A DNA stretch of 64,000 nt from an uncultured bacterium (GTDB taxonomy: Bacteria > Krumholzibacteriota > Krumholzibacteriia > JACNKJ01): the NCBI GenBank assembly GCA_964627205.1, contig CAZVHI010000009.1, forward strand, positions 33,735-97,734. The letters are read 5' to 3'. A model generated the notes under the pieces. It did no database searches. It was given only the letters and a program-made list of their open reading frames with translations, and was not told the DNA's origin. Every line of letters begins with the position of its first letter. Position 1 is the first letter of the stretch. The position numbers and the translations under genes are program-made. This document shows positions 3,784 through 45,885 of this stretch, piece by piece.

Positions 3784-5415
3784 ATGTCCCGTCGGCACAT
3801 CCACGCCTGGGCTCTGCTCGGACTGGCCCTGCTCTTCGGCTCCTGTACCGAGAAGCTCGAGCTGCTGGGCCCGCAGATCGTCGCGCCCGACAGCCTGCGC
3901 GGCACCATCGGCGACACGCTGCTGTTCACCAGCATCTACCTGGGCGATGGCAGCGACGTGGCGCGGCATTCCTGGGACTTCAACTCCGACGGCATCATCG
4001 ACTTCGTGTGGACGAACTTCGGCGACAGCGACACGCTGGTCGTCGACGGCGACACACTGGTCTTCGACGGCAACATGCAGATCATCGGGCACGCCTACTC
4101 GAGCACGGGCGAGTACACGGCCACCCTGCAGATCACGACCGTCGGCAACCGCCTCTTCCGCTCGCACACGCCCGTGCGCATCACGGACGGGCGGCCACAG
4201 CTCGCGGCCACGGTGAGCGATTCGGTCGGCTGCGGCGAGACAATCCTGCTCAGCGGCACGGCCTCCGACGACGCGGGCCTGCGCGCCTTCTGGGACCTCG
4301 ACGGCGACGGCATCCCCGACCTCAGCGCGGACTTCGTCGACTCGGTGACCCTGGAGGCCGAGGTCGCCTTCGACGAGCCGGGCGTCTACCCCTTCCGCTT
4401 CTCGGCCAGCGACAACGACGGCCACCTCGAGGCACTCGACTTCGCGGTCACGGTCGGCGTGGCACCCGAGTGGACGGATGGAGCGGCCATGAGCCAGCCG
4501 CGAGCCGACCACGCGGCGGCGGTCTTCGGCGGCGAGATCTACGTCTTCGGCGGCCGCCACGGCCGCGGGGCGACGGGCCGCGTCGAGATCTACGATCCCG
4601 TCGGTGACAACTGGCGCGACGGCGCGGACATGCCCACGCCGCGCTGGGGGCTCCAGGCCGTCGCGATCGGCGACTCCATCTTTGTCGCCGGCGGCGTCAC
4701 CATGGCCGACACGATCTTCCCCTACATGGAGATCTACGATCCGGTCGGCGATGCCTGGGAGACCTTCCCCGCGGACACGATCCACGCCATGCCCCTGCCG
4801 CGGCGCGGCTTCGCGATGCTGGAGGTGGGCGAGAAGTACGCGGGCGGCGACTCGCTGCTGCTCGTCGGCGGCACGACCGGCGGCGAGATGATCGAGTCGA
4901 ACCTGATCTACAACACGCACACGCGCAGCTGGTCGATCGACACCAACCCCAACAGCCCCCTCAGTCCCGGCCGCGCCTGGCTGGACGCGGTGACCGTGTG
5001 GAACGACGAGGCCGAGATCGGCGGCCGCATGTTCGCGCTCGGCGGCACGGGCGACGGCATCACCCCCAGCGGGATCTTCGAGCGCTACATCCCCTTCAAC
5101 GACTTCTGGACTGGCGAGCCCCCGCTGCCGACGCCGCGCATCGCGCCGGCGCTGGCCCAGCACGGCGGCAAGCTCTACGTGTTCGGCGGCTCGCTCGGTA
5201 TCGTCGGGGCCACGGACGTCGTGGAGGTCTTCAGCCTGACGACCGAGCTCTGGGACGCGGTGACGCCCATGCCCCTGGCGCGCAGCGGTGCCGTGGCGGT
5301 GACCCTGGAGGGCCGTATCTACGTGATCGGCGGCGCCACGGAGTTCACCTCGCCCTATCATGTCGAGGGCAGCGTGGAACTGCAGGTCCTCGTTCCCTGG
5401 CGCTGCGCTCCCTGA
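3784..5415 (+). CDS. Lipoprotein with N-terminal PKD-like domains and a C-terminal Kelch-repeat beta-propeller
   Basis: AAGGAG RBS 6 nt upstream. Lipobox LFGSC. Repeated Kelch signatures (IYVFGG, IFVAGG, LLLVGG, LYVFGG, IYVIGG). Confidence 0.75.
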   Translation: MSRRHIHAWALLGLALLFGSCTEKLELLGPQIVAPDSLRGTIGDTLLFTSIYLGDGSDVARHSWDFNSDGIIDFVWTNFGDSDTLVVDGDTLVFDGNMQIIGHAYSSTGEYTATLQITTVGNRLFRSHTPVRITDGRPQLAATVSDSVGCGETILLSGTASDDAGLRAFWDLDGDGIPDLSADFVDSVTLEAEVAFDEPGVYPFRFSASDNDGHLEALDFAVTVGVAPEWTDGAAMSQPRADHAAAVFGGEIYVFGGRHGRGATGRVEIYDPVGDNWRDGADMPTPRWGLQAVAIGDSIFVAGGVTMADTIFPYMEIYDPVGDAWETFPADTIHAMPLPRRGFAMLEVGEKYAGGDSLLLVGGTTGGEMIESNLIYNTHTRSWSIDTNPNSPLSPGRAWLDAVTVWNDEAEIGGRMFALGGTGDGITPSGIFERYIPFNDFWTGEPPLPTPRIAPALAQHGGKLYVFGGSLGIVGATDVVEVFSLTTELWDAVTPMPLARSGAVAVTLEGRIYVIGGATEFTSPYHVEGSVELQVLVPWRCAP

Positions 5416-8871: not shown

Positions 8872-11316
8872 CTACTGGACGACGAGCAGCTTCTTCGTGC
8901 CCTTCTCGTTGTGGCCGGTGAGCGGGTTGCTCGCCCAGACGCCGGCGATGTAGGCGCCGCTGGGAACCTGGACGCCCGCGTCGCTCAGGCCGTCCCAGCC
9001 GAGCAGGTGGTAGCCGCCACCCATGGGCTCGCCGTCCTTGAGGACGCGCACCAGGCGGCCGCTGACGTCGAAGATCTTCACGGTGACGTCGGCGTCCGCC
9101 GCGGTCGCGAAGGCGATGTTCGTGAACGGGTTGAAGGGGTTCGGGTAGCTCTGCACTGCGCCGAGCAGGCGGTCGCCCGAGGGCACCCAGTCGCCGACGG
9201 CGGTCAGCTCGCCAAGCGGCTCGCTGCCGCCGGACTCGTGATAGCGCGCCGCGAACTCCTGCAGGTACATGTTGGCCACGCTCTGGTCATGGATGATCAG
9301 CGTGTTCTCGTCGTTGGAACTGTCGGCGCTGAAGCTCCAGTTGTGACTGCCGGTGACCACGAGGGGATCGTCGTCCACCCAGTTCACGTCGACGATCATG
9401 TACTTGTGGTGGAGCAGGCGGTTGCCGGGCAGGGGCGTGTCGATCCAGACGTCGGCGGGGATGTCCCAGGCGTAGGGCGAGCAGGGATCGCCGGCCATCT
9501 GATAGTAGACGCTGCCGTTGTAGCAGTCGCCCAGGCCCTCGTCGAAGACGCCGCGGATCTCCAGGTCGCCGCCGAGGGCGGCGCGGTGGTCGTACATGGC
9601 GTCGGAGAGGTTGTAGTTCGTGAAGGCCAGGATAGCGAAGTAGACCGAGTGGTCGGCGGTCTCCATGGCCTCGGTGATCTTCCCGTGGGTGCCGTCGCTC
9701 GGGCTCATGTACTGCTGGACGCGCAGGCCGTTGATCAGGAACTCGTGCGGCGTGTCGTCCACCTTGTTGCGGCCCATGCGCGCGTAGGTGGAGTTGGGGG
9801 TCTGCGTGTCGCTGCCCCACATCTCGTTGAACTCGAGCGTGTAGGCCTGCGCGAGGCCCGCGTCCTGGATCTTGACCGCGTTGTTCACGTCGTCGTTGCC
9901 GGAGATGCTCATGTTGGCGCTGCCGGTCCAGACCCAGTCGTTGTAGGGATCCGCGTCGCGCGCGTCGATGGTCACGAACTTGTTGTGCATGATGCCGTCG
10001 CTGCCGTCACCGCCGTGGTTGCCCCCGTAGGCGCTGGTGATGTAGGGGATGCCGTGGCTGGCGCAGTAGTCCGCGGCGGCCGACGAGTTGTTCTCGTCGA
10101 TGATGATGCGCACCAGGCAGCCGCGGTTGTGGGCGTTGACCAGGGCGTCGCGCACGTTGTTCAGGCTGAAGCTGTAGAGGCAGGCGTCCACCGAGTAATC
10201 GGCCTGGTTGATCTGAACGGTCAGGAGCGAGGAGAGCCCCATCATCACCGGGACCTCGTTGCCCTCGTCCGCGTAGTCGTGATCCGCGGTGAAGCTCATG
10301 TAGACGTGCAACTCACCGGGCTGGTCGTTGGCGGTGGCCAGCAGCTGGTCGGGGCCGTAGCGCGTGCCCTCGCCGTCGCTGCTCTTGGCACGGAAGTGGT
10401 AGACGCTGTTCGGGTCGAGGCCGGTGATCTCCACCGTGTGCTCGGTCTCCTCGGCGAGGGGATCGCCGGCGGTGTTGCCGTAGCTGTCGTCGACGCCCCA
10501 CTCGATCTCGCTCGAGCCGGGGGAGGACGTCTCGAAGTAGATCGTCGCGCTGTTCTCTGTGATCGCGATCACCTCGGGCAGGCCCACGATGGGCGGGCCG
10601 GACTCGTGCGTGAGGACGTCGCTGGCGAAGCGCGGGACGATCTCGTAACCGTCCGTGTAGGGCGAGCTGCTATCGAACTGCTTCAGGATGCCGATGACGT
10701 CGAAGACCGCGCCGGGGTCCGGGCTGCCGTTGGCCGTGGTGTCCTTGTCGATGAAGAGCAGGGCGGTGTCGGTACCGTCGCTGATGTCGATGAAGGAGTT
10801 GCTGCTCTGGGGCGTGATGGGCCAGGGATCGCCACCGACGATGCTGACGTCATTGATACGGATCAGGCGGCCCTCGTCGGGCTCGCTGTAGTCGCCCAGG
10901 AAGGTGGCGTTCAGCTCGGCGCAGGTGATGATCAGGGGATCGGGCAGGCCGGAGCCGGGACCGTGGTTGGTGATCGTCGTCTCGCCGGTGCTGGTACCCA
11001 GCTCGGTGAGGCCGTTGTACTGGTCCACGCGGGCGGTCACCGTGATGCTGTCGCCGAGTTCGGCCACGTAGCTGGCGGCGCCGCCGCTCACCCAGACGTT
11101 CACGCCGGCCGTGGCGTCCTGGAGGTAGATCTCCAGGTTGTAGAGGCTGTAGGTGAAGTTGGGGCTGGTCACGACCCCGCGGACCGTCACCACCTCGTCC
11201 ATCATCGTGGGCACGCCGGTGGCGTCGTTCTGGTGTACGTCGATGATGTCGATGGCCAAGGCCGGCAGGGCGATGCCCAGAACCGCCAGCGCGACGAGCA
11301 GGCTGTGCAGACGCAT
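8872..11316 (-). CDS. Secreted phospholipase-D-superfamily protein (two HKD motifs; nuclease or phospholipase) with FN3-like region and FlgD-Ig-like / T9SS type-A C-terminal domain
   Basis: Signal peptide MRLHSLLVALAVLGIALPALA. HKD motifs IMHNKFVTID...GSANMS and LHHKYMIVD...GSHNWS. C-terminus SYPNPFNPFTNIAF...VKIFDVSGRLVRVL...WDGLSDAGVQVPSGAYIAGV matches the Por_Secre_tail family. Confidence 0.8.
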   Translation of the reverse strand: MRLHSLLVALAVLGIALPALAIDIIDVHQNDATGVPTMMDEVVTVRGVVTSPNFTYSLYNLEIYLQDATAGVNVWVSGGAASYVAELGDSITVTARVDQYNGLTELGTSTGETTITNHGPGSGLPDPLIITCAELNATFLGDYSEPDEGRLIRINDVSIVGGDPWPITPQSSNSFIDISDGTDTALLFIDKDTTANGSPDPGAVFDVIGILKQFDSSSPYTDGYEIVPRFASDVLTHESGPPIVGLPEVIAITENSATIYFETSSPGSSEIEWGVDDSYGNTAGDPLAEETEHTVEITGLDPNSVYHFRAKSSDGEGTRYGPDQLLATANDQPGELHVYMSFTADHDYADEGNEVPVMMGLSSLLTVQINQADYSVDACLYSFSLNNVRDALVNAHNRGCLVRIIIDENNSSAAADYCASHGIPYITSAYGGNHGGDGSDGIMHNKFVTIDARDADPYNDWVWTGSANMSISGNDDVNNAVKIQDAGLAQAYTLEFNEMWGSDTQTPNSTYARMGRNKVDDTPHEFLINGLRVQQYMSPSDGTHGKITEAMETADHSVYFAILAFTNYNLSDAMYDHRAALGGDLEIRGVFDEGLGDCYNGSVYYQMAGDPCSPYAWDIPADVWIDTPLPGNRLLHHKYMIVDVNWVDDDPLVVTGSHNWSFSADSSNDENTLIIHDQSVANMYLQEFAARYHESGGSEPLGELTAVGDWVPSGDRLLGAVQSYPNPFNPFTNIAFATAADADVTVKIFDVSGRLVRVLKDGEPMGGGYHLLGWDGLSDAGVQVPSGAYIAGVWASNPLTGHNEKGTKKLLVVQ

Positions 11317-11475: not shown

Positions 11476-12633
11476 TCAGGGATCGGGTTCCATCCCGGGG
11501 AGATACGGTGCCGGCTCATCGAAGGGATCTCCCACCGGCTTTGGCTTCTCGATCTTCAAGCAGATCGCCTTGAGCTTGTCCGAAGCGACATAGTACCGGC
11601 CGCGCTTCTCTCCCTGCGGAGACAGGAGTTCTCTGTCGACCAGGAGCTTGAGATCTCGACTCGCCAGATTGTTCGAGATATCCGCCACCTTTCGATAGGT
11701 GGAATTCCTGACACGATAACCAGTAGCCGCATCTGCGAGAGCCAGTATCGTACGATCGGGCATACCGTCCTTCTCGATCGCGATCTCCAACGCATTCCAG
11801 GTTTCCTGCATCTGCCGGATTCGCTGAGCAATCGTGGATGCCTGTCGGAAATGCGCAGTGAGACAGAATCGGATCCATGGCCTTGCGTCCCGACGCGGAT
11901 TCCAGCTCCCGCCTCCGACCTCGGCCAGGACGTCATAGTACTCGGGGGTGTTCCTCCCCAGGTATTCCTCGATGCTTGAAAACGTAGGCGCGAGCGTGCC
12001 GCCACGCGCCAGGACCAGAGTCTGGAGACAGCGCGCCATGCGACCATTCCCGTCCTTGAACGGATGGATCATGGTGAGATTGAGATGAGCCATGGCAGCT
12101 TGAATCATCCACGGAAGATTAATGTCATCGGCATTCAGCGCATCCACGAGTTCCCGCATCAGAGCAGGGACATCACCCGCCTCGGCCCCTTCGTAGACGA
12201 TCTCTCCGGATTCTTCGTTGCGGATGGCGATGTACCCCGGCCGCCACTGACCCGGGTTCTTCGACAGATCGTGCTCGAGCATCATGTAATGCAGGCTGCG
12301 GAGAAGATCCGGGGAGTAGGCGAAGTGAGGATCCGACGCAAGTCGCAGCACATAGGTCATGGCTCTGCGATAGCCCGTGACCGCAGACCAAGACGATGCC
12401 TCTGCCTCCACGGGTTCGAGTTCCTCCTCCGCCGCGATGGCATCCTCGATCGTGACGTTGTATCCCTCAATCGCATTGGAGCCACGAATCGCCCGTGCCT
12501 GAGTGCTTCTTCGGAGAAGCCCGTACCAGCGCGGTGGCGCGGTCAGGGGGTATCTTAGTTTTCCCTTGATCTCACTGATTCTCTCGATCACCCGAGTTTC
12601 TTCTGGGTTGAGAACAGGAGCTTGGAAGATCAT
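11476..12633 (-). CDS. fic: Fic-family AMPylase (class II; intramolecular inhibitory helix) with C-terminal winged-helix domain
   Basis: Fic motif HPFKDGNGRMAR. Upstream inhibitory motif SNAIEG = (S/T)xxxE(G/N). C-terminal wHTH. ATG at 12633 preceded by AGGAG. Lies in a ~55% GC patch of a ~70% GC genome. Confidence 0.85.
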   Translation of the reverse strand: MIFQAPVLNPEETRVIERISEIKGKLRYPLTAPPRWYGLLRRSTQARAIRGSNAIEGYNVTIEDAIAAEEELEPVEAEASSWSAVTGYRRAMTYVLRLASDPHFAYSPDLLRSLHYMMLEHDLSKNPGQWRPGYIAIRNEESGEIVYEGAEAGDVPALMRELVDALNADDINLPWMIQAAMAHLNLTMIHPFKDGNGRMARCLQTLVLARGGTLAPTFSSIEEYLGRNTPEYYDVLAEVGGGSWNPRRDARPWIRFCLTAHFRQASTIAQRIRQMQETWNALEIAIEKDGMPDRTILALADAATGYRVRNSTYRKVADISNNLASRDLKLLVDRELLSPQGEKRGRYYVASDKLKAICLKIEKPKPVGDPFDEPAPYLPGMEPDP

Positions 12634-12662
12634 GTTAACACTCCTAACTGACCATGGATCAG

Positions 12663-12691
12663 ATATTAACTGACTATACATCAATTGTCAA
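12663..12691 (-). promoter_or_regulatory. Sigma70-like promoter for fic (-35 TTGACA, 17-bp spacer, -10 TAATAT), interleaved with three direct repeats TGGTCAGTTA
   Basis: Minus-strand TTGACA at 12686-12691 and TAATAT at 12663-12668. Plus-strand repeat copies TAACTGAC[CT]A at 12645-12654, 12667-12676 and 12697-12706. The last copy abuts the RBS. Confidence 0.5.
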
Positions 12692-14631: not shown

Positions 14632-14868
14632 CTAGGAACTCACTTCCATCGCGAGCCAGCGGTCCAGCACACTCTTGAGGAACCGCCACTCACTGCCGAC
14701 CTTCTTCGCCGGGATCTTGCCTTCCTTGGCGAGGCGACAGACGGTCTTCACGTGCATCTTCAAATACTCAGCGGCCTCCACGGAGGTCAAAACCGGAGAA
14801 ACCTGCTCCTCCGTTCCCACATAGATGTTGGAGTATTCGCTTTCCTTCCAGTCGGACATCGGTTTCAT
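14632..14868 (-). CDS. Excisionase/MerR-type helix-turn-helix DNA-binding protein (small)
   Basis: LTSVEAAEYLKMHVKTVCRLAKEGKIPAKKVGSEWRF matches the excisionase-family HTH (TIGR01764-like). Local GC is ~52%. Confidence 0.7.
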   Translation of the reverse strand: MKPMSDWKESEYSNIYVGTEEQVSPVLTSVEAAEYLKMHVKTVCRLAKEGKIPAKKVGSEWRFLKSVLDRWLAMEVSS

Positions 14869-15300
14869 CCTTCGTTTGCAGGTTCCATCGATGCAGGAAA
14901 AGCACGTCTTCCCACTAAAGCTTCAACGAGAGTCCAAGACCACCCTTGCTCGCTGACTCACTCCTGGGGTTCGCCCGTGGAGTGTTCCCCGTCGAACCCC
15001 GATGAGCAAGGCCCATGCCACAGGGGCCATCGCCCGCAATCGACGGAAAATCATGGGATTGCGCGAGAGATGCCCAGGATTCCCTGGCAAGACCTGCTCC
15101 GGGTTGGCATTTCTCGTCGTTCCTCGTGCCTCCCCGAGGGCGCTCATCGTTCCCCATGTTTCCCCATGCTGCCGCAGAGGAAGTTTCGCAATCCGCACGC
15201 TCCCCGTTGCGGGATGGATGCCCCCCGGAATCCTGCCGGCGGTGCGCTGTCCCGTCGGTGGCATAGGCCTTGCAGCCTGCGCGATCCGCAGGAGGGGAGT

Positions 15301-15951
15301 ATGGATCTGGACGCGAACTACATCGAGATCGAGGGTGGCCAGGGCAAGCGGAAGCGACCGCGATTCGCCTTTGTCATCGAGGCGCTGCTGCGCAGCCGGC
15401 GGGACGCGGGGCTGGAGACGGGCATCCACCGGCCCGACGAGGACGTCAACATGTACCTCGGCGCCCTGCTCTGCCGCTACGCCGACTCCCCCACCGGCGG
15501 CGTGGAGGAATCAAGCCTGATTCCTTACGAGGGGGATCTCTACGAGAGCATTCGCGAGGTCGGCCAGACGCGCGCGAAGTACCACATCTACCGCTGGAAC
15601 GCCGACCACCTCCTGATGACCCTCGGCATCTTCGGCAACGCCTGGTGGCGCAACCCCAAGCAGTCGGCCTTCCACTGGACGCCCACGCGGCTCGAGTCCA
15701 TCGCCCGCGGCAAGCTCTACTATGGCAAGGCCGCGACCTACGTGTCGCGTCTCGAGGAGGGACGCAAGGGCTTGGAGGAGCTGCTCGCGAAGCTCGAGGT
15801 GGGATTCGAGGAGTACCTGAGAATCCTGGAGACGCTGCGCGTGGACTACTTCCACATGCTCCGGGGTTTCGGGCCGGGCGAGTGGTATCACCTCTGCAAA
15901 GATCTCGGCGTCAGTCCCGACGCTTCCCCGCCTTCTGCGTCTTCTGGATGA
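15301..15951 (+). CDS. Hypothetical protein (217 aa), unknown function
   Basis: Strong RBS (AGGAGGGGAGT-ATG). No recognised domain. 3' end overlaps the convergent hydrolase gene by 41 bp, so the end is uncertain. Confidence 0.5.
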   Translation: MDLDANYIEIEGGQGKRKRPRFAFVIEALLRSRRDAGLETGIHRPDEDVNMYLGALLCRYADSPTGGVEESSLIPYEGDLYESIREVGQTRAKYHIYRWNADHLLMTLGIFGNAWWRNPKQSAFHWTPTRLESIARGKLYYGKAATYVSRLEEGRKGLEELLAKLEVGFEEYLRILETLRVDYFHMLRGFGPGEWYHLCKDLGVSPDASPPSASSG

Positions 15952-16827: not shown

Positions 16828-17886
16828 CTAGTCATCCCAATCGGCCACGAAGACGTTCGTCTCGCGGGGTTTGGCGTTCAGGCGGTTCGAGGCGAAGATC
16901 AGCTGGCTGCCGTCGGCGTTCCACATGGGGAAACCCTCGAAGCTCGGCCCGTAGGTGACGCGCTCGTTGTTCTTGCCGTCGATGCCGATGATCCACAGGT
17001 CGAAGTTGCGGCCCCTCGGGTCCCCCTGGTTGCTGCAGTAGATGATGCGCTTGCCGTCGGGGAAGAAGTAGGGGCCGATGTTGGCGGCGCCGTTGTCGGT
17101 CACCTGGCGCTTGTTCGAGCCGTCGGCGTCCATCACCCAGACCTGGAGGGCCATGGGGCTGATCGCGTGGTCGGCCATGAGCTGCTCGTAGTGGGCGATC
17201 TCGTCTTCGGTCTCGGGATAGAAGGCGCGCCAGACGATCATGCTCCCGTCGGCGCTCCACCAGGGCCCGCCGTCGTAGCCCAGGCGGTCGGTGAGTTGCA
17301 CCTTGTTCCCGCCGTCGGCGTCCATCACCCAGATGTCCAGGTCGCCCCCGCGCTGGGAGGTGTAGACGATGCGCCCGTCCGGTCCGACGATGGCCTCGGC
17401 GTCGTAGCCCCAGTCGTCGGTGAGCTGCTCGAGGTCGCTGCCGTCGGTCTTGGCGGTGAAGACGTCGAACTCGGGGTGCAGCGGCCAGACGTAGCCCTTG
17501 CGGAAGTCGGGGGGCGGCGGGCAGTCGTCCATGTGGTGATGGGTCGAGGCGTAGAGGATGCGCTCGTCCCCCTGCATGAAGTAGCTGCAGGTGGTCTTGC
17601 CCTTGCCCGTCGAGACCATGTTCTGCTCGCTGCCGTCGGGCTTCATGGTGAAGATCTGGTCACATTCGCGGGGCGGGCGCGTGGCCTGGAAGATGATCCG
17701 GTCGTTCGCCCAGGACCAGTAGGCCTCGGCGTTCTCGCCGCCGAAGGTGAGCTGGCGGAGATTGGACAGGTGGGCCTCTCCCGCGTATTGCAGGGAGTCG
17801 CCGCCCCCGCCGCCGCTCTGGGCGGGCGCCCGGTCCACGGACCCGGCGAGTAGGGCCAGGGCCGCCATTGCGGCCGCTGCCGACAT
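16828..17886 (-). CDS. TolB-like / PD40 (WD40-like) beta-propeller periplasmic protein
   Basis: Signal peptide MSAAAAMAALALLAGS. Repeated PD40 signatures (PDG..I.Y.S.R.G..D.W). GAGGAAG RBS. Confidence 0.75.
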   Translation of the reverse strand: MSAAAAMAALALLAGSVDRAPAQSGGGGGDSLQYAGEAHLSNLRQLTFGGENAEAYWSWANDRIIFQATRPPRECDQIFTMKPDGSEQNMVSTGKGKTTCSYFMQGDERILYASTHHHMDDCPPPPDFRKGYVWPLHPEFDVFTAKTDGSDLEQLTDDWGYDAEAIVGPDGRIVYTSQRGGDLDIWVMDADGGNKVQLTDRLGYDGGPWWSADGSMIVWRAFYPETEDEIAHYEQLMADHAISPMALQVWVMDADGSNKRQVTDNGAANIGPYFFPDGKRIIYCSNQGDPRGRNFDLWIIGIDGKNNERVTYGPSFEGFPMWNADGSQLIFASNRLNAKPRETNVFVADWDD

Positions 17887-24009: not shown

Positions 24010-24142
24010 AAGTTTGCAGCGTCAGGTCGCGTACGTAGGTCACGCCGTCATAGCCGATCACGCCCACCTGCCCTTCGAAGGAGCAGGAGACGATAGCTAG
24101 ATAGCCGTGCTCGTTCGGCGGGCCGACGGTGATGTCTATCAT
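24010..24142 (-). pseudogene. Remnant (~45 codons) of an FG-GAP/T9SS-protein paralogue
   Basis: Translation PNEHGYLAIVSCSFEGQVGVIGYDGVTYVRDL is ~70% identical to an internal segment (PDNEHGFPTVVACSFEGQVDVIGYDGITYAREL) of the intact FG-GAP gene at 25360-27069. No start, no signal peptide, no CTD. Confidence 0.6.
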
Positions 24143-24302
24143 ATTGAAGCGGATCGATGCTTGGGCCGGCAGAGCAGGCTGCTAAGATCCATCCGCAGCC
24201 GTGTCGAAGGCCGCGGGAGGATCAGCAGGAGCAACGAGAATCCAGACTTGTGCCCTGGGAAGGGCGGGCCCGGCCACGAGGGCATGGCGCCCATCGGGCT
24301 CG

Positions 24303-24662
24303 TCAAGACAGCAGCTTCGCCACGGCATCGCGAAAATGGCGGATCTGCTCCAGAAAGTCCGCGTCGTCCATGCCCACATAATCGTAGACCGACAGATTCC
24401 GCGCGTTCAGGAACCGGTTCCATGTCTCGAGATCACGGATCAGCCGCAGTTGGGCCGCGGCCTTGAGCGCGTCGCGCGGACTGTAGACCTCGAGGCCGGC
24501 ACGATCGGCTTCTCGCTTGAAGCGCTTCCAGGCGTATTCGAAGGTGGTCTCGAAAGCTTTTGCCAGTGCGGCGAAGCGGAGTGGATTTGCAGGCTCGGCC
24601 TCCTGCTCGCGCAATGCGGCGTCCAGAAGAGCGCAGGCCTGACCGAGCTTTTCGTCATTCAT
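24303..24662 (-). CDS. hepT: HepT-like HEPN-domain protein (HI0074 family; nucleotidyltransferase substrate-binding protein), toxin component
   Basis: Matches HI0074/HepT family (FETTFEYAWKRFK, PRDALKAAAQLRLI). The Rx4-6H region reads RNLSVYDY (Tyr where the catalytic His is expected). Overlaps the upstream MNT gene by 8 bp. Confidence 0.75.
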   Translation of the reverse strand: MNDEKLGQACALLDAALREQEAEPANPLRFAALAKAFETTFEYAWKRFKREADRAGLEVYSPRDALKAAAQLRLIRDLETWNRFLNARNLSVYDYVGMDDADFLEQIRHFRDAVAKLLS

Positions 24663-25245
24663 GGAGCTTCATCCCCGCCTTTCGCAGCAGCTCGCACCAG
24701 ATCCCATGCGAGCCAGCCAAGAATACAAGATCCTCCGCCAGACCGCGAAGGAAGGATGCCTCCGCTCGGCTGAGGTCGACGAGCTGAGCTGTCAGCAAGG
24801 ACTCCTGATTCCATTCACTGACGCGATCGAGCAGTCGCGAGAACCTGGCGAAATCGAGAACGTCCGGACTGAACACGGCGATGTCGTAGTCGGAGTAAGG
24901 TTTCGCTGTCCCGCGAGCACGGGATCCGAAGAGCGCGAATACGGCCTCTGGAACGATCGTGTGCAGTTGATCGACGAGACTCGACACGCCCAAGCCCGGC
25001 ACCAGCCTGCGCCGCAGGCGCAGATTCAGGATCTCCGCCGGTGAGAGTTCGAGCGTCGCGAGCATCCTGGCCAGAGCGCTCGGCAGGCTTGCCTTGCCCG
25101 CCAGGTATTTGCTGACGGTATTGCGGTGCAAGCCCAGGGCATGCGCGAAATCCGTGGCGGAGGAGAATCCGTGCTCGTGCATGGCCTGCTGCAGGCGCGT
25201 GGCATCGAGGGTGATCTCTGCGTGTTCAGCTGTCATAGCCTGCAT
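24655..25245 (-). CDS. mntA: Minimal nucleotidyltransferase (MntA-like antitoxin) fused to an N-terminal XRE-type HTH domain
   Basis: N-terminal HTH (FSSATDFAHALGLHRNTVSKYLAGK). C-terminal NTase motif GSRARGTAKPYSDYDIAVF (GS...DxD). Palindrome ACTGTGC-attc-GCACAGT at 25252-25269 lies just upstream. Confidence 0.8.
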   Translation of the reverse strand: MQAMTAEHAEITLDATRLQQAMHEHGFSSATDFAHALGLHRNTVSKYLAGKASLPSALARMLATLELSPAEILNLRLRRRLVPGLGVSSLVDQLHTIVPEAVFALFGSRARGTAKPYSDYDIAVFSPDVLDFARFSRLLDRVSEWNQESLLTAQLVDLSRAEASFLRGLAEDLVFLAGSHGIWCELLRKAGMKLHE

Positions 25246-25359: not shown

Positions 25360-27069
25360 TCAGCGCAGGAGGACGATCCGGCGGGAGAGGGTCTCGCTGC
25401 CAGCCCGGAGCTGCAGCAGATAGACGCCGCTGGCCTGGGGCTCTCCGTCCGCGCCCTGCCCGTTCCAGAGGGCCGCGGCCATTGCGCCGGGCGAGGCTCC
25501 CTCGGCGAGGATGCGCAGCAAGCGCCCACGCACGTCGTAGACGCGCAGCGAAACCGGCGCCATGCCCGCCGGCGCCGCGAAGCGGATCTCACCGCCCGGC
25601 CGGAAGGGGTTCGGCGCCGCGAGTCGCAGGGCGTTCGCGGCCCCCGGCTCCCAGTCCGCGGCCGTCAGGTCCAGCTCCTCGAACATCGAGACCAGGTCGC
25701 TGCCACTGCGCGCGAGGACGAGATCGCGCCGCGGATCAGTGCCGTCGACAAAAGCAAAGTCCGCGCTGCGCAGGGGATCGCCCACGCTTAGCGGCGGCGC
25801 CAGCTCGCGCGCGTAGGTTATGCCGTCGTAGCCGATCACGTCCACCTGGCCCTCGAAGGAGCAGGCGACGACCGTCGGAAAGCCGTGCTCGTTATCCGGG
25901 CCGATCGCGAGGTCCATCACGTTGCCGGGGATCGCAAAGGGGCTCGTCCACACGGGCGTGAAGGTGTCGTCCGCGTAGGACTCGTAGATGTAGATCACCT
26001 CGTTGCTGCCGAGGACCAGCTCGTTCTCCTCGTCGCCGTCCAGGTCGGCGATGGCGCCGCTGATCGGCAGCCCCGTCGTCGTCGCCTCGAAGAGCTTGTG
26101 TTCCCAGGTTCCCGAGCTGGGATTGTGTTCGAGGCGGCGGATGTAGGTGGGGTAGCCCGGCCAGCCGCCTACCTCGAGCAGGACCTCGCCCTTGCCGTCG
26201 TTGTCGGCGTCGCCGGGCTTGCAGCCGAAGAGGTAGCTCACCGTGTCGTAGTCGTGCGCGAGCGTATAGACGTTGTCACCGATCGCCCCGCTGTGCTCGA
26301 AGAGCTTCAGCGAGCCGCCGTCGGTGGACGAACTGCCCGCGGCGATGATCTCGACAGCTCCGTCGCCGTCCGTATCGGCCGTCTGGATCTCGCGCACCTG
26401 CCAGTCGACCTGGAAGCCCAGCGTCCGCGCCTCGAAGGTGTCGTCGCCCGTGTTCTCCCACAGGTAGAGGCGGCCGAGCGTGCCCGCCTCGCCAGCGATG
26501 ACCTCGCGCAGCATGTCGCCGTCGGTCTCGCCGGTGTCCAGCGCAACGATCGATGGCGTGCTCTGCTGCGGGCTCGCCCAGACCTGGGCGAAGTGATCGT
26601 CCGCGCCGTTTTCGAAGACGCGCACGAGCGTGCCCGGGTAGTAGTAGGCCTGGCCGACGATCTCGCGCGCGCCATCGCTGTCCAGGTCGTCGACCTCGCT
26701 GTCCCAGACGTTCTGCAGCGCGCCGCCCGTGTTCCACTTCTCCGTGAAGCCGAGGATCTCGCGCCCAGACGGGCCCGCCAGCTCGCGGCCCGCGAACAGC
26801 AGCGTGTCGCCGGCCAGCAGGTCGGGCAGGCCGTCGCCGTCGACGTCGGCGAAGCGCAGAGCACCATCATCCCAGACTGCGCGCGATGCGGCGGGAAGAC
26901 GCGTGATCACGTCGCCCGTCTCGCTCCGCAGCACGAGATCGCCACCCTCCCGGGCGGCGTCGATCCGCTCCAGTGTTCCGTCCTGCTCGAGATCCGTGAC
27001 GAGCGTGACTCCGCCCGCGGAGGCGGCGACAAGCAGGGCACTGAAAGTAACAAGGATTCGGGCAGACAT
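25360..27069 (-). CDS. Secreted FG-GAP/VCBS-repeat (integrin-alpha-like) protein with FlgD-Ig-like / T9SS type-A C-terminal domain
   Basis: Signal peptide MSARILVTFSALLVAASAGG. FG-GAP repeats (DVDGDGLPDL, DLDSDGAREI, DTDGDGAVEI, DADNDGKGEV, DLDGDEENEL). CTD LAAPNPFRPGGEIRF...LRVYDVRGRLLRIL...WNGQGADGEPQASGVYLLQL. Start lies 2 nt after the stop of the upstream gene. Confidence 0.8.
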   Translation of the reverse strand: MSARILVTFSALLVAASAGGVTLVTDLEQDGTLERIDAAREGGDLVLRSETGDVITRLPAASRAVWDDGALRFADVDGDGLPDLLAGDTLLFAGRELAGPSGREILGFTEKWNTGGALQNVWDSEVDDLDSDGAREIVGQAYYYPGTLVRVFENGADDHFAQVWASPQQSTPSIVALDTGETDGDMLREVIAGEAGTLGRLYLWENTGDDTFEARTLGFQVDWQVREIQTADTDGDGAVEIIAAGSSSTDGGSLKLFEHSGAIGDNVYTLAHDYDTVSYLFGCKPGDADNDGKGEVLLEVGGWPGYPTYIRRLEHNPSSGTWEHKLFEATTTGLPISGAIADLDGDEENELVLGSNEVIYIYESYADDTFTPVWTSPFAIPGNVMDLAIGPDNEHGFPTVVACSFEGQVDVIGYDGITYARELAPPLSVGDPLRSADFAFVDGTDPRRDLVLARSGSDLVSMFEELDLTAADWEPGAANALRLAAPNPFRPGGEIRFAAPAGMAPVSLRVYDVRGRLLRILAEGASPGAMAAALWNGQGADGEPQASGVYLLQLRAGSETLSRRIVLLR

Positions 27070-30649: not shown

Positions 30650-30743
30650 GATTCTCCTTGTTGATTCCGCAGCCCAGGCGTAGCTTCGGCTGAAAGTCGA
30701 GCGGCTCCATCTTCGCGATCTCCGACAGCCAGAGGTGATCCGC

Positions 30744-32414
30744 ATGACCAACCCGTTGCTGCTCATCGAGCGCAAAGACAAGATCGTCCTGATCTCGCTC
30801 CTCGCCCTGATGACCCTGATTGCGAGCATACCCTTCGGATTCAGCGCGCTCAACATCATCAGCCACTTGCTTGCCCGCAGCATCGCCACGATCTCGTTCC
30901 TGCCCTTCGGCGTGGCTCTCCTGTACATCAGCATGAAGATGCGTCACCTGCGCCTGCTGCGCCGGCTCATGTTCGCGGGCATGATCATCATGCCTATTGC
31001 GAGGATCCTGCAGGCGCTCCTGATGTGGCGCGTACCCCATCCGGGCACGACGGGGGACATCTTGCCCGCCATCGCCTTCAGCGGCCTCGAGATGGCGACG
31101 ATGACCGGGATATCGATCCTGTTCTTTGCCGTCTTCACCGCTCTGCTCATTGCCGACCGCAGCCAGGACAAGCTCGAGAAGGAGGTCGCCGAGCGCCGCG
31201 AAGCGGAGCGGAAGGTCCGCGAGCAGTCCGCGGCGCTGGCGGACGCCGTCGCCAGAACCAAGGCGGCGAGCCAGGCCAAGAGCGAGTTCGTGGCCCATAT
31301 GAGCCACGAGATCCGCACGCCCTTCTGCGGTGTGCTCGGCATGACCGAGCTCGCCTACGATCTCGCCGAGAACGAAGAGCAGCGGGAGTACTTAAGCACG
31401 GCCCGCCAATCGGCCGAGTCCCTGCTGATGCTGATCGAACACGTGCTCGACCTCTCCAAGATCGAATCCGGCAAGCTCGCGCTGGAGGAGAGGGAGTTCG
31501 ACCTCCTCCCCATCCTGGAGGAGACCCTGAGCATCCTTCGCCCCCAGGCCGCCGGCAAGGGCCTCAATCTCCGCTTCGAATCCGAGGGCGATCTGCCGGA
31601 GCGAATCATGAGCGATCCCTTGCGTCTCCGCCAGGTGCTCCTCAACCTCCTCGGCAACGCCGTCAAGTTCACCGCGGAAGGCGAAGTGGTCCTGCACGTG
31701 TCCGTCGGACCGCGCCTTGGTGAAGAGGTTCCCCTCTCGATCAAGGTCCGGGACACGGGTATTGGACTGGCGCCGGAGCAGCTGACGCGGATCTTCGAGC
31801 CCTTCTACCGAGCGGAAGACTCGAGCCCGGGGAAGACGGGCGGCACGGGCCTCGGCCTGGCGATCAGCGCGAAGATCGTCGAGCTGCTCGGGGGGAGCCT
31901 CGAGGCGGAGAGCCACGAGGGAGAGGGCAGCGTCTTTCGCTTCACCTTCACGACCCGGATCGCGGATCCGGCGCCATTCGCCACCGAGGGTGAAGACGAT
32001 CGCTCGGTCCTATCGTTGCCGCGTCCACTGCATGTGCTCCTGATCGAGGATAATCCCGTCAACCAGAAGGTGGTAGCGAAGCTGCTCGAGAAGGAAAACC
32101 ACGAGGTCTTGATCGCGAGCGACGGCCGGGAGGGCCTGGCGCGTGTCAACGATGAGATCGATCTCGTGTTGATGGACATCCAGATGCCCGAGCTGGATGG
32201 CATCGCGGCCACGCGTGCCATCCGGGAGCGCGAAAAGGGTACGGGTCGGCATGTGCCGATCCTCGCCCTCACAGCGGGCGTCCTCACCGACGAGCGCGAA
32301 CGCTGCTTCGAGGCGGGCATGGACGCCTTCCTCTCCAAGCCCGTCACCCGCCGCAACCTGCTCGCCGGCATCAAGAGCGCCCTGGACTCCTTGTCCGAGA
32401 CGGCGTCGAACTGA
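30744..32414 (+). CDS. Hybrid sensor histidine kinase / response regulator (membrane sensor, HisKA-HATPase-REC)
   Basis: N-terminal TM region. H-box SEFVAHMSHEIRTP. G-box GTGLGLAISAKIVE. C-terminal receiver (VLLIEDNPVNQKV...VLMDIQMPELDG). Confidence 0.85.
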   Translation: MTNPLLLIERKDKIVLISLLALMTLIASIPFGFSALNIISHLLARSIATISFLPFGVALLYISMKMRHLRLLRRLMFAGMIIMPIARILQALLMWRVPHPGTTGDILPAIAFSGLEMATMTGISILFFAVFTALLIADRSQDKLEKEVAERREAERKVREQSAALADAVARTKAASQAKSEFVAHMSHEIRTPFCGVLGMTELAYDLAENEEQREYLSTARQSAESLLMLIEHVLDLSKIESGKLALEEREFDLLPILEETLSILRPQAAGKGLNLRFESEGDLPERIMSDPLRLRQVLLNLLGNAVKFTAEGEVVLHVSVGPRLGEEVPLSIKVRDTGIGLAPEQLTRIFEPFYRAEDSSPGKTGGTGLGLAISAKIVELLGGSLEAESHEGEGSVFRFTFTTRIADPAPFATEGEDDRSVLSLPRPLHVLLIEDNPVNQKVVAKLLEKENHEVLIASDGREGLARVNDEIDLVLMDIQMPELDGIAATRAIREREKGTGRHVPILALTAGVLTDERERCFEAGMDAFLSKPVTRRNLLAGIKSALDSLSETASN

Positions 32415-44225: not shown

Positions 44226-44525
44226 TCCCGGCCTGGGCGCTTTAATTGACCAATCGGGGTCGCGTCCTCATGCTTCCCCATGATTTCCCATAGGTCCTCA
44301 TCATTTCTCATGCTTCCCCCCAGCCCAATACCAGCTTTTCTGGTCCGGTTGTATCATTTTCGAAAAATTAACTGGACCCATCCAAGTGCGGTATAATTGG
44401 CCTCGTACTGACATATCCCAGGTTCTTGGGTTCGGCCCATGAGCCGGTCGAGAACTACATCATGGGCTGCACCAACGGACCGAACTCAGGAAGAACACCA
44501 CCCCCATGTCTCCTGGGAGGGCATC

Positions 44526-45056
44526 ATGAAGAGAATACTGGTTCTGCTGACCCTGCTGGCTGCCGTCGCAGCGCCGGCCTTGGCCGATCGGGACATGACG
44601 GGCAGCTGGGCGGAGATCCAGGCCCCCGCCATCGCCAATCCCGGCGACACCGTCGTCTTCAAGCTCTTTGTTTTCAACGGTAGTCCGGACCTCGAGTGGA
44701 CCCGGGAAGTGATCATCTACTTCCCCGAGAACTTCGACGTGCTGGACGGCTGGTACGACGACCTCGGCCAGGACTGGGCCTTCGACTTCAGCATCGACGG
44801 CTTCCACGGCAACATCGCCGTCTTCACCGACGCCGATGGCGGTTTCGGCGAGATCTACGACGGCACCGGCGGCGAATTCTACGCGCAGGTCTACCTGCAC
44901 GAGAACGTTGACTGCGGGCCCATCCACATCGACTGGAAGCAGTGGGGCGACGGCTACGGCAGCGACCCCCACTGGATCCGGGGCGAGCTGCCCTACGTGC
45001 TCTGCGTGATTCCGACCCAAGAGAGCAGCTGGTCGACGGTCAAGAGCCTGTACTAG
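44526..45056 (+). CDS. Small secreted protein (paralogue 1 of 2) ending in C-terminal SWSTVKSLY
   Basis: gGAGGGcatcATG start context identical to paralogue 2. Signal peptide MKRILVLLTLLAAVAAPALA. Conserved blocks shared with paralogue 2 (EW..E.II.FP, DADGG.GEIY.G.GG.F, PH...GE). Ends ...SSWSTVKSLY*. Confidence 0.75.
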   Translation: MKRILVLLTLLAAVAAPALADRDMTGSWAEIQAPAIANPGDTVVFKLFVFNGSPDLEWTREVIIYFPENFDVLDGWYDDLGQDWAFDFSIDGFHGNIAVFTDADGGFGEIYDGTGGEFYAQVYLHENVDCGPIHIDWKQWGDGYGSDPHWIRGELPYVLCVIPTQESSWSTVKSLY

Positions 45057-45113
45057 AAGCGACCCGGGCCGACTGGATCCGGCCCCGGGCTCGGCTCGAA
45101 TAGCACCCAGGAA

Positions 45114-45137
45114 ACCCGCGCACGCACGCGGGTTTTC
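45114..45137 (+). terminator. Rho-independent terminator after paralogue 1
   Basis: CCCGCG-cacgca-CGCGGG stem followed by TTTTCG. Confidence 0.55.
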
Positions 45138-45345
45138 GCATGTTTCGGGTGGTTTATCTTGAAATTTTAGAGATTCGCATCTCTTGAACCCTTCCCCGCA
45201 TTCCTGCCATAGTTTGAGACGCTGGGAGCGTTAATGCGCATAACAGGAGTTCGCGAACCCGCTCTCGGCGAGGCCACTGGAAGAGCCCCCATGGAAGGCT
45301 CGTATACCGGATTCCGGGTACAACATTGCAGCAATGGAGGGCATC

Positions 45346-45885
45346 ATGAAGAAACTGTTTCTGACAGTCGCGGTGCTGGCTCTATTCGCAACACCAGCAC
45401 TGGCCGACCGCAGTATAGAGGGTAGTTACGTAGAACTTATCGAACCGCAGGGATTGCTCTGCGCGTGCTCGACCTATGAGTTCGTCTTCTACGTCTGGAA
45501 CAACTCCATGGATGTGGAGTGGATCGCCGAAATCATCATCACCTTCCCCGACTGCTGGGAGATCGTGGCCGGTTCCGACTGGTACACGCCGGATCCCGGC
45601 GCCGCGGGTCCCTTCAACTTCATGTTCATCGGTGGCGGTAACGTGGCCCACTGGGCGGACGCCGATGGAGGCTGGGGCGAGATCTACGGCGGCGAGGGTG
45701 GACACTTCGGCGTGACCGTTCACATCTGCCCCGACATGGTGGGCGATGTGCCGATCTACTGGGGCCTGCAGGGCGACATCTACGGCAACGAGCCGCACTA
45801 TGTCGACGGCGAAATCTGGGTCATTGTCTCCGACACCACACCAGTCGAGGACAGCACCTGGAGCAAGGTCAAGGGCCTCTACTAG
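45346..45885 (+). CDS. Small secreted protein (paralogue 2 of 2) ending in C-terminal TWSKVKGLY
   Basis: Signal peptide MKKLFLTVAVLALFATPALA. ~40% identity to paralogue 1 across the mature region. Ends ...DSTWSKVKGLY*. Confidence 0.75.
   Translation: MKKLFLTVAVLALFATPALADRSIEGSYVELIEPQGLLCACSTYEFVFYVWNNSMDVEWIAEIIITFPDCWEIVAGSDWYTPDPGAAGPFNFMFIGGGNVAHWADADGGWGEIYGGEGGHFGVTVHICPDMVGDVPIYWGLQGDIYGNEPHYVDGEIWVIVSDTTPVEDSTWSKVKGLY

Follow-up and report, generated by a model that had tools for sequence, protein, structure and literature searches.

Phased 10-bp repeat arrays as putative cis-regulatory binding sites at a divergent sigma-54 region of an uncultured Krumholzibacteriota bacterium

A divergent sigma-54 control region and its phased array

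The subject of this analysis is a pair of 10-bp direct-repeat arrays in a 64,000-nucleotide stretch of DNA from an uncultured bacterium of the Krumholzibacteriota (assembly GCA_964627205.1, contig CAZVHI010000009.1, positions 33,735 to 97,734). The whole stretch, which we call the window, belongs to a marine metagenome contig of 103 kb (JGI Ga0118727_1000410) and has also been assembled from other samples. Array A (15105-15174, plus strand) lies between two divergent genes. On its left is a minus-strand gene (14632-14859) encoding a protein of the excisionase family, named here the HTH_17 protein after its domain, and on its right a plus-strand gene (15301-15951) for a 216-aa conserved hypothetical protein. 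Array B (44259-44318, plus strand) lies upstream of the gene for a small secreted protein, paralogue 1. An earlier note on this DNA had described a direct-repeat element of two half-sites about 10 bp apart, shared by three intergenic regions (A, B and C) and placed upstream of both of two small paralogous genes.

Locus A was compared with six orthologous loci from relatives (L022-L027), which together with the window give seven orthologous intergenic regions. The gene order Wzi, HTH_17 gene (minus strand), 216-aa gene (plus strand) and hydrolase recurs in these loci, L023 being without a called Wzi gene; the HTH_17/216-aa gene pair is syntenic in 6/6 relatives, and the intergenic region measures 410-445 bp in all orthologues. 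Two sigma-54 -24/-12 promoters point outwards from it. That of the 216-aa gene (TGGCATAGGCCTTGCA, 15259-15274, plus strand; consensus TGGCATrnGsyTTGCA) lies about 27-60 nt ahead of the gene and is present in all seven regions, in six with the full consensus and in L026 one mismatch short of it. The other (TGGCATGGGCCTTGCT, 15005-15020, minus strand; consensus TGGCATGGrCCTTGCT) is directed toward the HTH_17 gene and leaves a 5' untranslated region (5'UTR) of about 136 nt. Its block CAGCAAGGTCCATGCCAC is kept in 7/7 orthologues, and the promoter is found in the L077/L080 lineage too. A consensus scan of 185 kb returned full TGGCAY-N5-TTGCW matches solely at these two promoters of locus A.

Read from left to right, the locus consists of the HTH_17 sigma-54 promoter, a GATTGC box, a GGCAAG box, the array, a GCAATC box and the sigma-54 promoter of the 216-aa gene. 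The GATTGC box belongs to an inverted pair, CGCAATC-N15-GATTGCG (15035-15063), whose right half GGATTGC (15056-15062) is conserved in the orthologues. The GGCAAG/T box (15086-15091, plus strand) serves as an anchor; in the orthologues its distance to the minus-strand promoter is constant at 63-65 bp. The conserved GCAATCCGC box (15188-15196, plus strand), an inverted copy of the GGATTGC box, stands between array A and the plus-strand promoter. With transcription starts predicted from the -12 elements, array A sits midway between the divergent promoters, at -111 to -180 from both.

In a 10-nt register, array A reads, from 15105 to 15174, TGGCATTTCT CGTCGTTCCT CGTGCCTCCC CGAGGGCGCT CATCGTTCCC CATGTTTCCC CATGCTGCCG, seven units in direct reading with the consensus CRTSnTTCCC, the strongest of them at 15145-15168. 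Array B, likewise in direct reading, has six units of the same kind, GTCGCGTCCT CATGCTTCCC CATGATTTCC CATAGGTCCT CATCATTTCT CATGCTTCCC, from 44259 to 44318. The unit common to the two window arrays is CATGnTTCCC, phased at 10 bp over a run of 60-70 bp in each. The relatives' units at locus A read cTTCCCCGTnn instead, the CATG flavour being limited to the window species, and the conserved core is thus TTCCCC(R)T.

The phase of this core is retained across species. Counted from the GGCAAG anchor, almost all species have TTCCCC-like hexamers at 34/44/54/64/74/84; 20 of 29 hexamer hits share one phase (P about 4e-13, a statistic that ignores shared ancestry), with 6/6 in L027. The remaining spacer between the promoters aligns poorly among the orthologues. 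GGCAAG and GCAATCCGC are separated by 102 bp in four species; in the others the interval is 93, 103 or 112 bp, a variation of about one unit that keeps the flanks in helical phase. Judged by these comparisons, the conservation of phase at locus A fits a protein-binding array.

We scored arrays as five TTCCCC hexamers at 10-bp spacing (maximum 30) against a null of 20 Markov shuffles of the window. Array A scores 24 and array B 25, where the shuffle maximum is 18-21. No other position in the 64-kb window reaches 22 or more, and in the 257 kb of DNA scanned from Krumholzibacteriia and Latescibacterota, arrays with a score of at least 22 were confined to the orthologous sites of A and to B itself. 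Tandem Repeats Finder assigns a period of 10 to both arrays, covering their best-preserved cores only. The window holds four exact copies of the 9-mer TTCCCCATG, where 0.39 would be expected (P=7e-4): three copies are on the plus strand in A and B, and the fourth is intragenic on the minus strand at 16924. Arrays A and B are real and longer than two half-sites; of the geometry first described, the 10-bp, one-turn period stands, with 5-7 units in place of two. As the spacing is exactly one helical turn, all units lie on one side of the DNA.

Several other parts of the earlier description hold. The letters it gave for the three regions are present in the window, the element of A and B lies in non-coding regulatory DNA in the same orientation upstream of plus-strand genes, and local GC is indeed lower (0.63 in the A array, 0.52 in the B array and 0.54 in the C element, against 0.676 for the window). 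The distances of 130-240 bp to the downstream genes are roughly right, with B at 258 bp.

The relationship between A and B is confined to the unit. The two arrays are identical at 38/70 positions both in register and when shifted by one unit, on which ground we rejected the idea of a duplicated 60-bp element with a shared order of variant units. Their alignment shows no similarity outside the periodic unit and no flanking homology, neither has terminal inverted repeats, and repeat finding lists no family of this kind in the window. Given the lack of flanking homology and of further copies in 257 kb, an origin from a miniature inverted-repeat transposable element or other dispersed repeat, once suggested for these copies, is unlikely. 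No Rfam family was found in the window. Clustering or avoidance of CATG as a methylation site was also considered and dropped, there being 282 occurrences against 240 expected and no clustering.

Array B and the promoters of the small paralogues

Array B begins 34 bp past the stop codon of a GXGXG/GATase gene. Downstream of it lies the sigma-70-type promoter of paralogue 1 (TTAACT-18-TATAAT, 44368-44397, plus strand), from which the array is at -86 to -145, its proximal end being 50 bp upstream of the -35 hexamer. The gene that follows (44526-45056, plus strand) encodes the small secreted paralogue 1, of 176 aa, and paralogue 2 is encoded at 45346-45885 on the same strand. Neither protein has a family assignment in Pfam or NCBIfam. 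Their homologues are few, at 46-53% identity, and have sigma-70 promoters at the equivalent position. No array was found upstream of the paralogue genes in the relatives L028, L029 and L077, which makes array B species-specific. It is identical in nine population contigs from different samples; phase variation by copy number was considered and rejected, since array B does not vary in length among them. A consensus scan and inspection by eye detected no GG-N10-GC sigma-54 promoter downstream of B or C. As array B stands upstream of a sigma-70 promoter, a protein that binds the arrays would not be confined to sigma-54 promoters.

Region C (45193-45220), which had been taken for a third copy of the element, overlaps the 18-nt spacer and the -10 hexamer of the sigma-70-type promoter of paralogue 2 (TTGAAC-18-CATAGT, 45184-45213, plus strand; TTGAAC at 45184-45189 and CATAGT at 45208-45213). 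The relatives have promoters in the same place, with TTGACC-17-TATCAT and TTGAAC-17-TAGAAT as positional equivalents. The array score of region C is at background level and its letters are those of a promoter, so we rejected it as a third copy and count two array sites, not three. The shared element is therefore upheld for A and B and withdrawn for C; nor does it precede both paralogues, as B lies upstream of paralogue 1 only.

The two most curved 60-bp stretches of the window, according to a dinucleotide wedge model, are 44312-44376 and 45110-45190, with bends of 65-69 degrees against a median of 16. They immediately precede the -35 hexamers of the two paralogue promoters, which suggests strong UP-like or curved DNA there. 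In L028 (GCA_016933175.1; 4518-5915 and 8550-10549), the small secreted paralogues form three tandem copies with GGAGGACATCATGAAGA before each, and each of the two upstream regions read there contains a sigma-70 promoter. A gene for a PAS-domain sigma-54 activator lies about 2.6 kb upstream of these copies, beside an aromatic lyase gene; such a lyase gene neighbours the paralogues in the window as well as in L028.

Immediately 5' of array B, at 44250-44259, is CCAATCGGGG, which is similar to a CAATTGG(GG) box of the Latescibacterota locus L076. There two further sigma-54 promoters, at 4385 (minus strand) and 5735 (plus strand), and the region upstream of the HTH_17 gene, at about 9875-9890, each have such a box near the promoter. 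A box of the CAATTGG type may recur, and may be akin to the GCAATC boxes found at locus A.

A candidate binder and competing explanations

We interpret the arrays as cis-regulatory protein-binding arrays at a divergent sigma-54 region, with the HTH_17 protein as leading candidate binder only, and on the sequence evidence we give this reading a probability of about 0.4. That the array is a functional protein-binding site of some kind is probable on the same evidence. Supposing that it is, the HTH_17 protein may be its binder, a tentative assignment; a sigma-54 enhancer-binding protein is possible at rather low odds, a protein outside all of these classes equally so, and a regulator of the OmpR/PhoB type or another winged-helix protein would be a doubtful choice.

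The HTH_17 protein consists of 75 aa with one HTH_17 domain (Pfam HTH_17, E=2.6e-14) and passes the excisionase-domain model TIGR01764 with 48.5 bits against a cut-off of 28.8. It is 93-99% identical among orthologues, where the neighbouring 216-aa protein has 55-70%. Identities of 72-82% extend to more than 100 clusters among the matches listed, including Latescibacterota, and the helix-turn-helix is invariant in 38 sampled sequences. Its top PDB matches are the BldC-DNA structures 6AMK and 6AMA (E 0.02-0.03 with phmmer and 0.2-0.3 with a profile), the rest being at chance level, and the base-contacting K26 and R30 of BldC align with the invariant K38 and R42 of the HTH_17 protein. BldC binds head-to-tail on 9-bp direct repeats, with two to four cooperative protomers and tolerance of degenerate units, and GATTTCCCC is one of its repeats (PMC5859096); relatives of the Xis type bind cooperatively to GC-rich direct repeats (PMC12266134). 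We prefer the HTH_17 protein as candidate because its fold is known for head-to-tail filaments on direct repeats of 9-11 bp in variable number.

If this is correct, the 5-7 imperfect TTCCCC(R)T repeats would present one face of the DNA to a multi-protomer binder, and protomers of a single DNA-binding protein would line up on the array head-to-tail. Once bound, they could determine how active the promoters on either side are, probably in that they shape or cover the enhancer region. Array B would then be a species-specific second site through which this protein also controls the promoter of paralogue 1.

Two further features of the HTH_17 gene are recorded here as observations. Conservation as high as that of its product is commoner among nucleoid-associated proteins than among local regulators. 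Its 5'UTR (14860-14996, minus strand, about 136 nt, and the same region in L022-L027) has a 5'-proximal stem-loop, which gave no Rfam match and shows some compensatory changes: at 6 of the 21 predicted pairs, both partners have changed and pairing is retained.

A number of points weigh against the HTH_17 protein as binder, or against the arrays as binding sites. The wing residue His46 of BldC aligns with Glu57 in the HTH_17 protein, which scores 18.3 bits against a cut-off of 77 with the NCBIfam BldC model NF033787, and its AF2 structure model is poor and uninformative, without a fold match. The array units are GC-rich and carry TT only, with no AATT quartet, and published BldC sites are matched no less closely by the conserved GATTGC/GCAATC boxes than by the array. 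The array is absent from the Latescibacterota locus L076 and is represented by weak TCC phasing only in L077/L080, which are without the 216-aa gene. Since the recognition helix is invariant also in lineages that have no clear upstream array, the array tracks the 216-aa gene better than the HTH_17 gene. The spacer differences of about 10 bp could be whole-unit slippage, not selection for phase, and array B, which is not conserved, could be non-functional. Finally, the sigma-54 promoters require an enhancer-binding protein somewhere in the region.

The closest known systems are the BldC operators of Streptomyces (whiI, smeA-ssfA) and the arrays of Xis and other recombination directionality factors (lambda X1-X1.5-X2, mycobacteriophage Xis X1-X4 and the D29 Gp36 repeats). 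As in these, a small single-domain winged helix-turn-helix protein of the excisionase family is encoded beside the array, and the direct repeats are spaced at about one helical turn, vary in number (here 5-7) and tolerate degenerate units. A BldC operator consists of AATTnnnn(C) repeats, arranged head-to-tail and about 9-10 bp long; the units described here have a 10-bp period, also in direct orientation, but are GC-rich with TT only, where BldC needs AATT. The setting differs too, being a sigma-54 promoter pair in a chromosomal envelope-gene neighbourhood rather than a sigma-70 developmental promoter or an attachment site, and in contrast to the Xis systems there is no integrase near locus A.

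Among divergent sigma-54 promoter pairs, zraP-zraSR of E. coli has a shared enhancer region. Locus A resembles such shared enhancers in that its promoters are about 240-290 bp apart with conserved elements between them at -60 to -200, and departs from them in having a one-directional array, flanked by inverted GATTGC boxes, where known cases have dyad-symmetric activator sites. A further, tentative parallel is with the MraZ boxes, where three to four G-rich pentamers spaced by 10 bp precede mraZ: on its minus strand the array reads (T/C)GGGGAAnnn with a 10-bp period, comparable in form to the TGGGN-N5 repeats. The locus is not the dcw cluster, however, and the window contains no mraZ gene.

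An alternative binder at locus A is a bacterial enhancer-binding protein (bEBP), for whose hexamer the array would be the upstream activating sequence, looping to both divergent promoters. We regard this as unlikely on balance, though it accounts for much of the context: both flanking promoters are canonical and conserved sigma-54 promoters, a position of -111 to -180 from both starts is the classical enhancer distance, and the array is the most prominent repeated element between them, present in all seven lineages with the 216-aa gene and degenerate where that gene is absent. It accounts poorly for the array itself, which is unidirectional and lacks dyad symmetry, as a Fis-type helix-turn-helix normally binds dyad-symmetric sites as dimers; the flanking dyad-like CGCAATC/GATTGCG boxes are better bEBP candidates. 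Array B has no sigma-54 promoter downstream, and two other sigma-54 promoters, those of L076, are without such an array. A GAFTGA scan found no bEBP gene in the window or in L022-L027; L028 has one near the paralogue cluster. The earlier note had proposed boxes for an OmpR/PhoB-type response regulator. Winged-helix receiver proteins would then bind tandem 10-bp half-sites head-to-tail, as in OmpR F1-F3 or the TorR decamers, and the repeat geometry fits this. The sites of OmpR (F1-F3/C1-C3), TorR (decamer) and PhoB/PhoP are tandem 10-11 bp repeats, up to at least six, on one DNA face, which the 10-bp period and the 5-7 units match; array B precedes a sigma-70 promoter, from whose -35 hexamer it is separated by strongly curved AT-rich DNA, and a hybrid histidine kinase is encoded at 30735-32414. 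Those sites, however, abut or overlap a sigma-70 -35 hexamer and have a cognate receiver-winged-helix gene, neither of which is the case at locus A. Flanked by divergent sigma-54 promoters, array A does not suit this explanation, and we know of no OmpR-type activator that serves sigma-54 promoters. Both arrays are at -86 or beyond, further upstream than typical class I/II sites. Among about 40 open reading frames of the window scanned with Pfam, no OmpR-type regulator (receiver plus Trans_reg_C) was found, and the conserved neighbour is the HTH_17 protein. Taken together, this makes response-regulator boxes improbable.

The array could also have no sequence-specific function, being a decaying 10-bp minisatellite made by slippage, or a dispersed-repeat remnant whose unit was shared by ectopic copying. 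Isolated 10-bp arrays of the very same unit exist in many unrelated bacteria and eukaryotes, the interspecies spacer differences (93, 102, 103 and 112 bp) are of about one unit, as slippage gives, and array B is not conserved in relatives. The first of these points comes from pattern scans for CATSNTTCCCCATGNTTYCCCAT, which returned 11 loci in genome contigs and 45 in metagenome contigs, the source organism being in neither collection. All are unrelated short minisatellites of other taxa, including eukaryote-like contigs, and they reflect ascertainment, because the query itself spans 2.3 tandem units. Slippage leaves unexplained why the hexamer offsets are kept when the neighbouring protein is only 55-70% identical and the surrounding spacer has diverged beyond alignment, and the copy number of array B is constant in the nine population contigs; the lack of flanking homology, terminal inverted repeats and further copies in 257 kb speaks against a mobile or copied repeat. 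We therefore hold an origin of this sort to be about as improbable as response-regulator boxes. Least probable, and by our estimate very unlikely, is a DNA-structural element whose phased C/G tracts aid enhancer-promoter looping through curvature or a G-quadruplex/i-motif. The helical phasing of the C-tracts is conserved, and at sigma-54 promoters an intrinsic bend can take the place of IHF. Against it, arrays A and B fall at the 58th and 82nd percentiles of 60-bp bends in the window (a wedge model with approximate parameters), the truly curved DNA adjoins the arrays rather than lying within them, and the canonical four-run C/G-tract pattern is present in only 3 of 8 arrays and in neither of the two window arrays.

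A further observation concerns arrays in unrelated contigs from soil and from Bacillota. Those in L021, L048, L055, L058 and L066 (Acidobacteriaceae-like) and in L015 and L016 (Bacillota) start with a shared lead-in, tcccgtctGTCCCCATGTTTCCCC... or agaaccGTCCCCATGCTTCCCC..., which suggests lineage-specific families of 10-bp minisatellite-like repeats. The L015 array adjoins an IS200/RAYT-like transposase gene.

Returning to the HTH_17 protein, a more ambitious form of its proposed role can be sketched. An Xis/BldC-like protein, which from its sequence distribution appears almost invariant, chromosomal and widespread in the Krumholzibacteriota, Latescibacterota and related uncultured lineages, would form polymers along the phased C-tracts of an array and in this way make up the architectural core of a sigma-54 enhancer, controlling its own sigma-54 promoter, the divergent gene and newly recruited sigma-70 targets. 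The architectural role in sigma-54 enhancers is normally taken by IHF or by the activator's own sites. We consider this extended form speculative and rather unlikely.

Neighbouring genes and biological meaning

Downstream of the HTH_17 gene, on the same strand, are genes for Wzi, a Fic-domain protein, a phospholipase D (PLD)-like protein, a lipid A acyltransferase and a glycosyltransferase. The Fic/DOC-domain gene (11476-12684, minus strand) lies between the PLD-like gene and Wzi. None of the six orthologous loci has it there, and a recent insertion is probable. The 216-aa protein on the other side of the array has about 27 orthologues with 54-70% identity, the named ones belonging to Candidatus Krumholzibacteriia. 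It matches no Pfam or NCBIfam family, and its predicted model is helical and without a fold match.

Elsewhere in the window, an HTH_26-nucleotidyltransferase and an adjacent NTase_sub_bind protein (24303-25245, minus strand) resemble a toxin-antitoxin pair of the MNT/HEPN type. The 141-nt stretches 24016-24156 and 25794-25934 are 78% identical (82% over a 220-column alignment), and probably reflect a C-terminal domain common to two surface-protein genes on the minus strand, not a non-coding repeat.

The Krumholzibacteriota are, to our knowledge, known only from metagenomes, and we know of nothing reported on their gene regulation. Locus A offers a concrete regulatory module in this phylum: two invariant sigma-54 promoters, a positionally conserved phased array and an unusually conserved 75-aa protein, beside cell-envelope genes for Wzi, a phospholipase D-like protein, a lipid A acyltransferase and a glycosyltransferase. 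The kind of element is known; the setting, with an uncultured phylum, sigma-54 promoters and a hyper-conserved neighbour of the excisionase family, is new. Should the HTH_17 protein not bind the array, the result would be a good annotation of a promoter region and nothing more. If it does bind, the head-to-tail mode of BldC and Xis would be found in a distant lineage, and at sigma-54 promoters, as well, and if it also acts as the architectural core, this would be the first link between excisionase-type filament formers and the architecture of sigma-54 enhancers.

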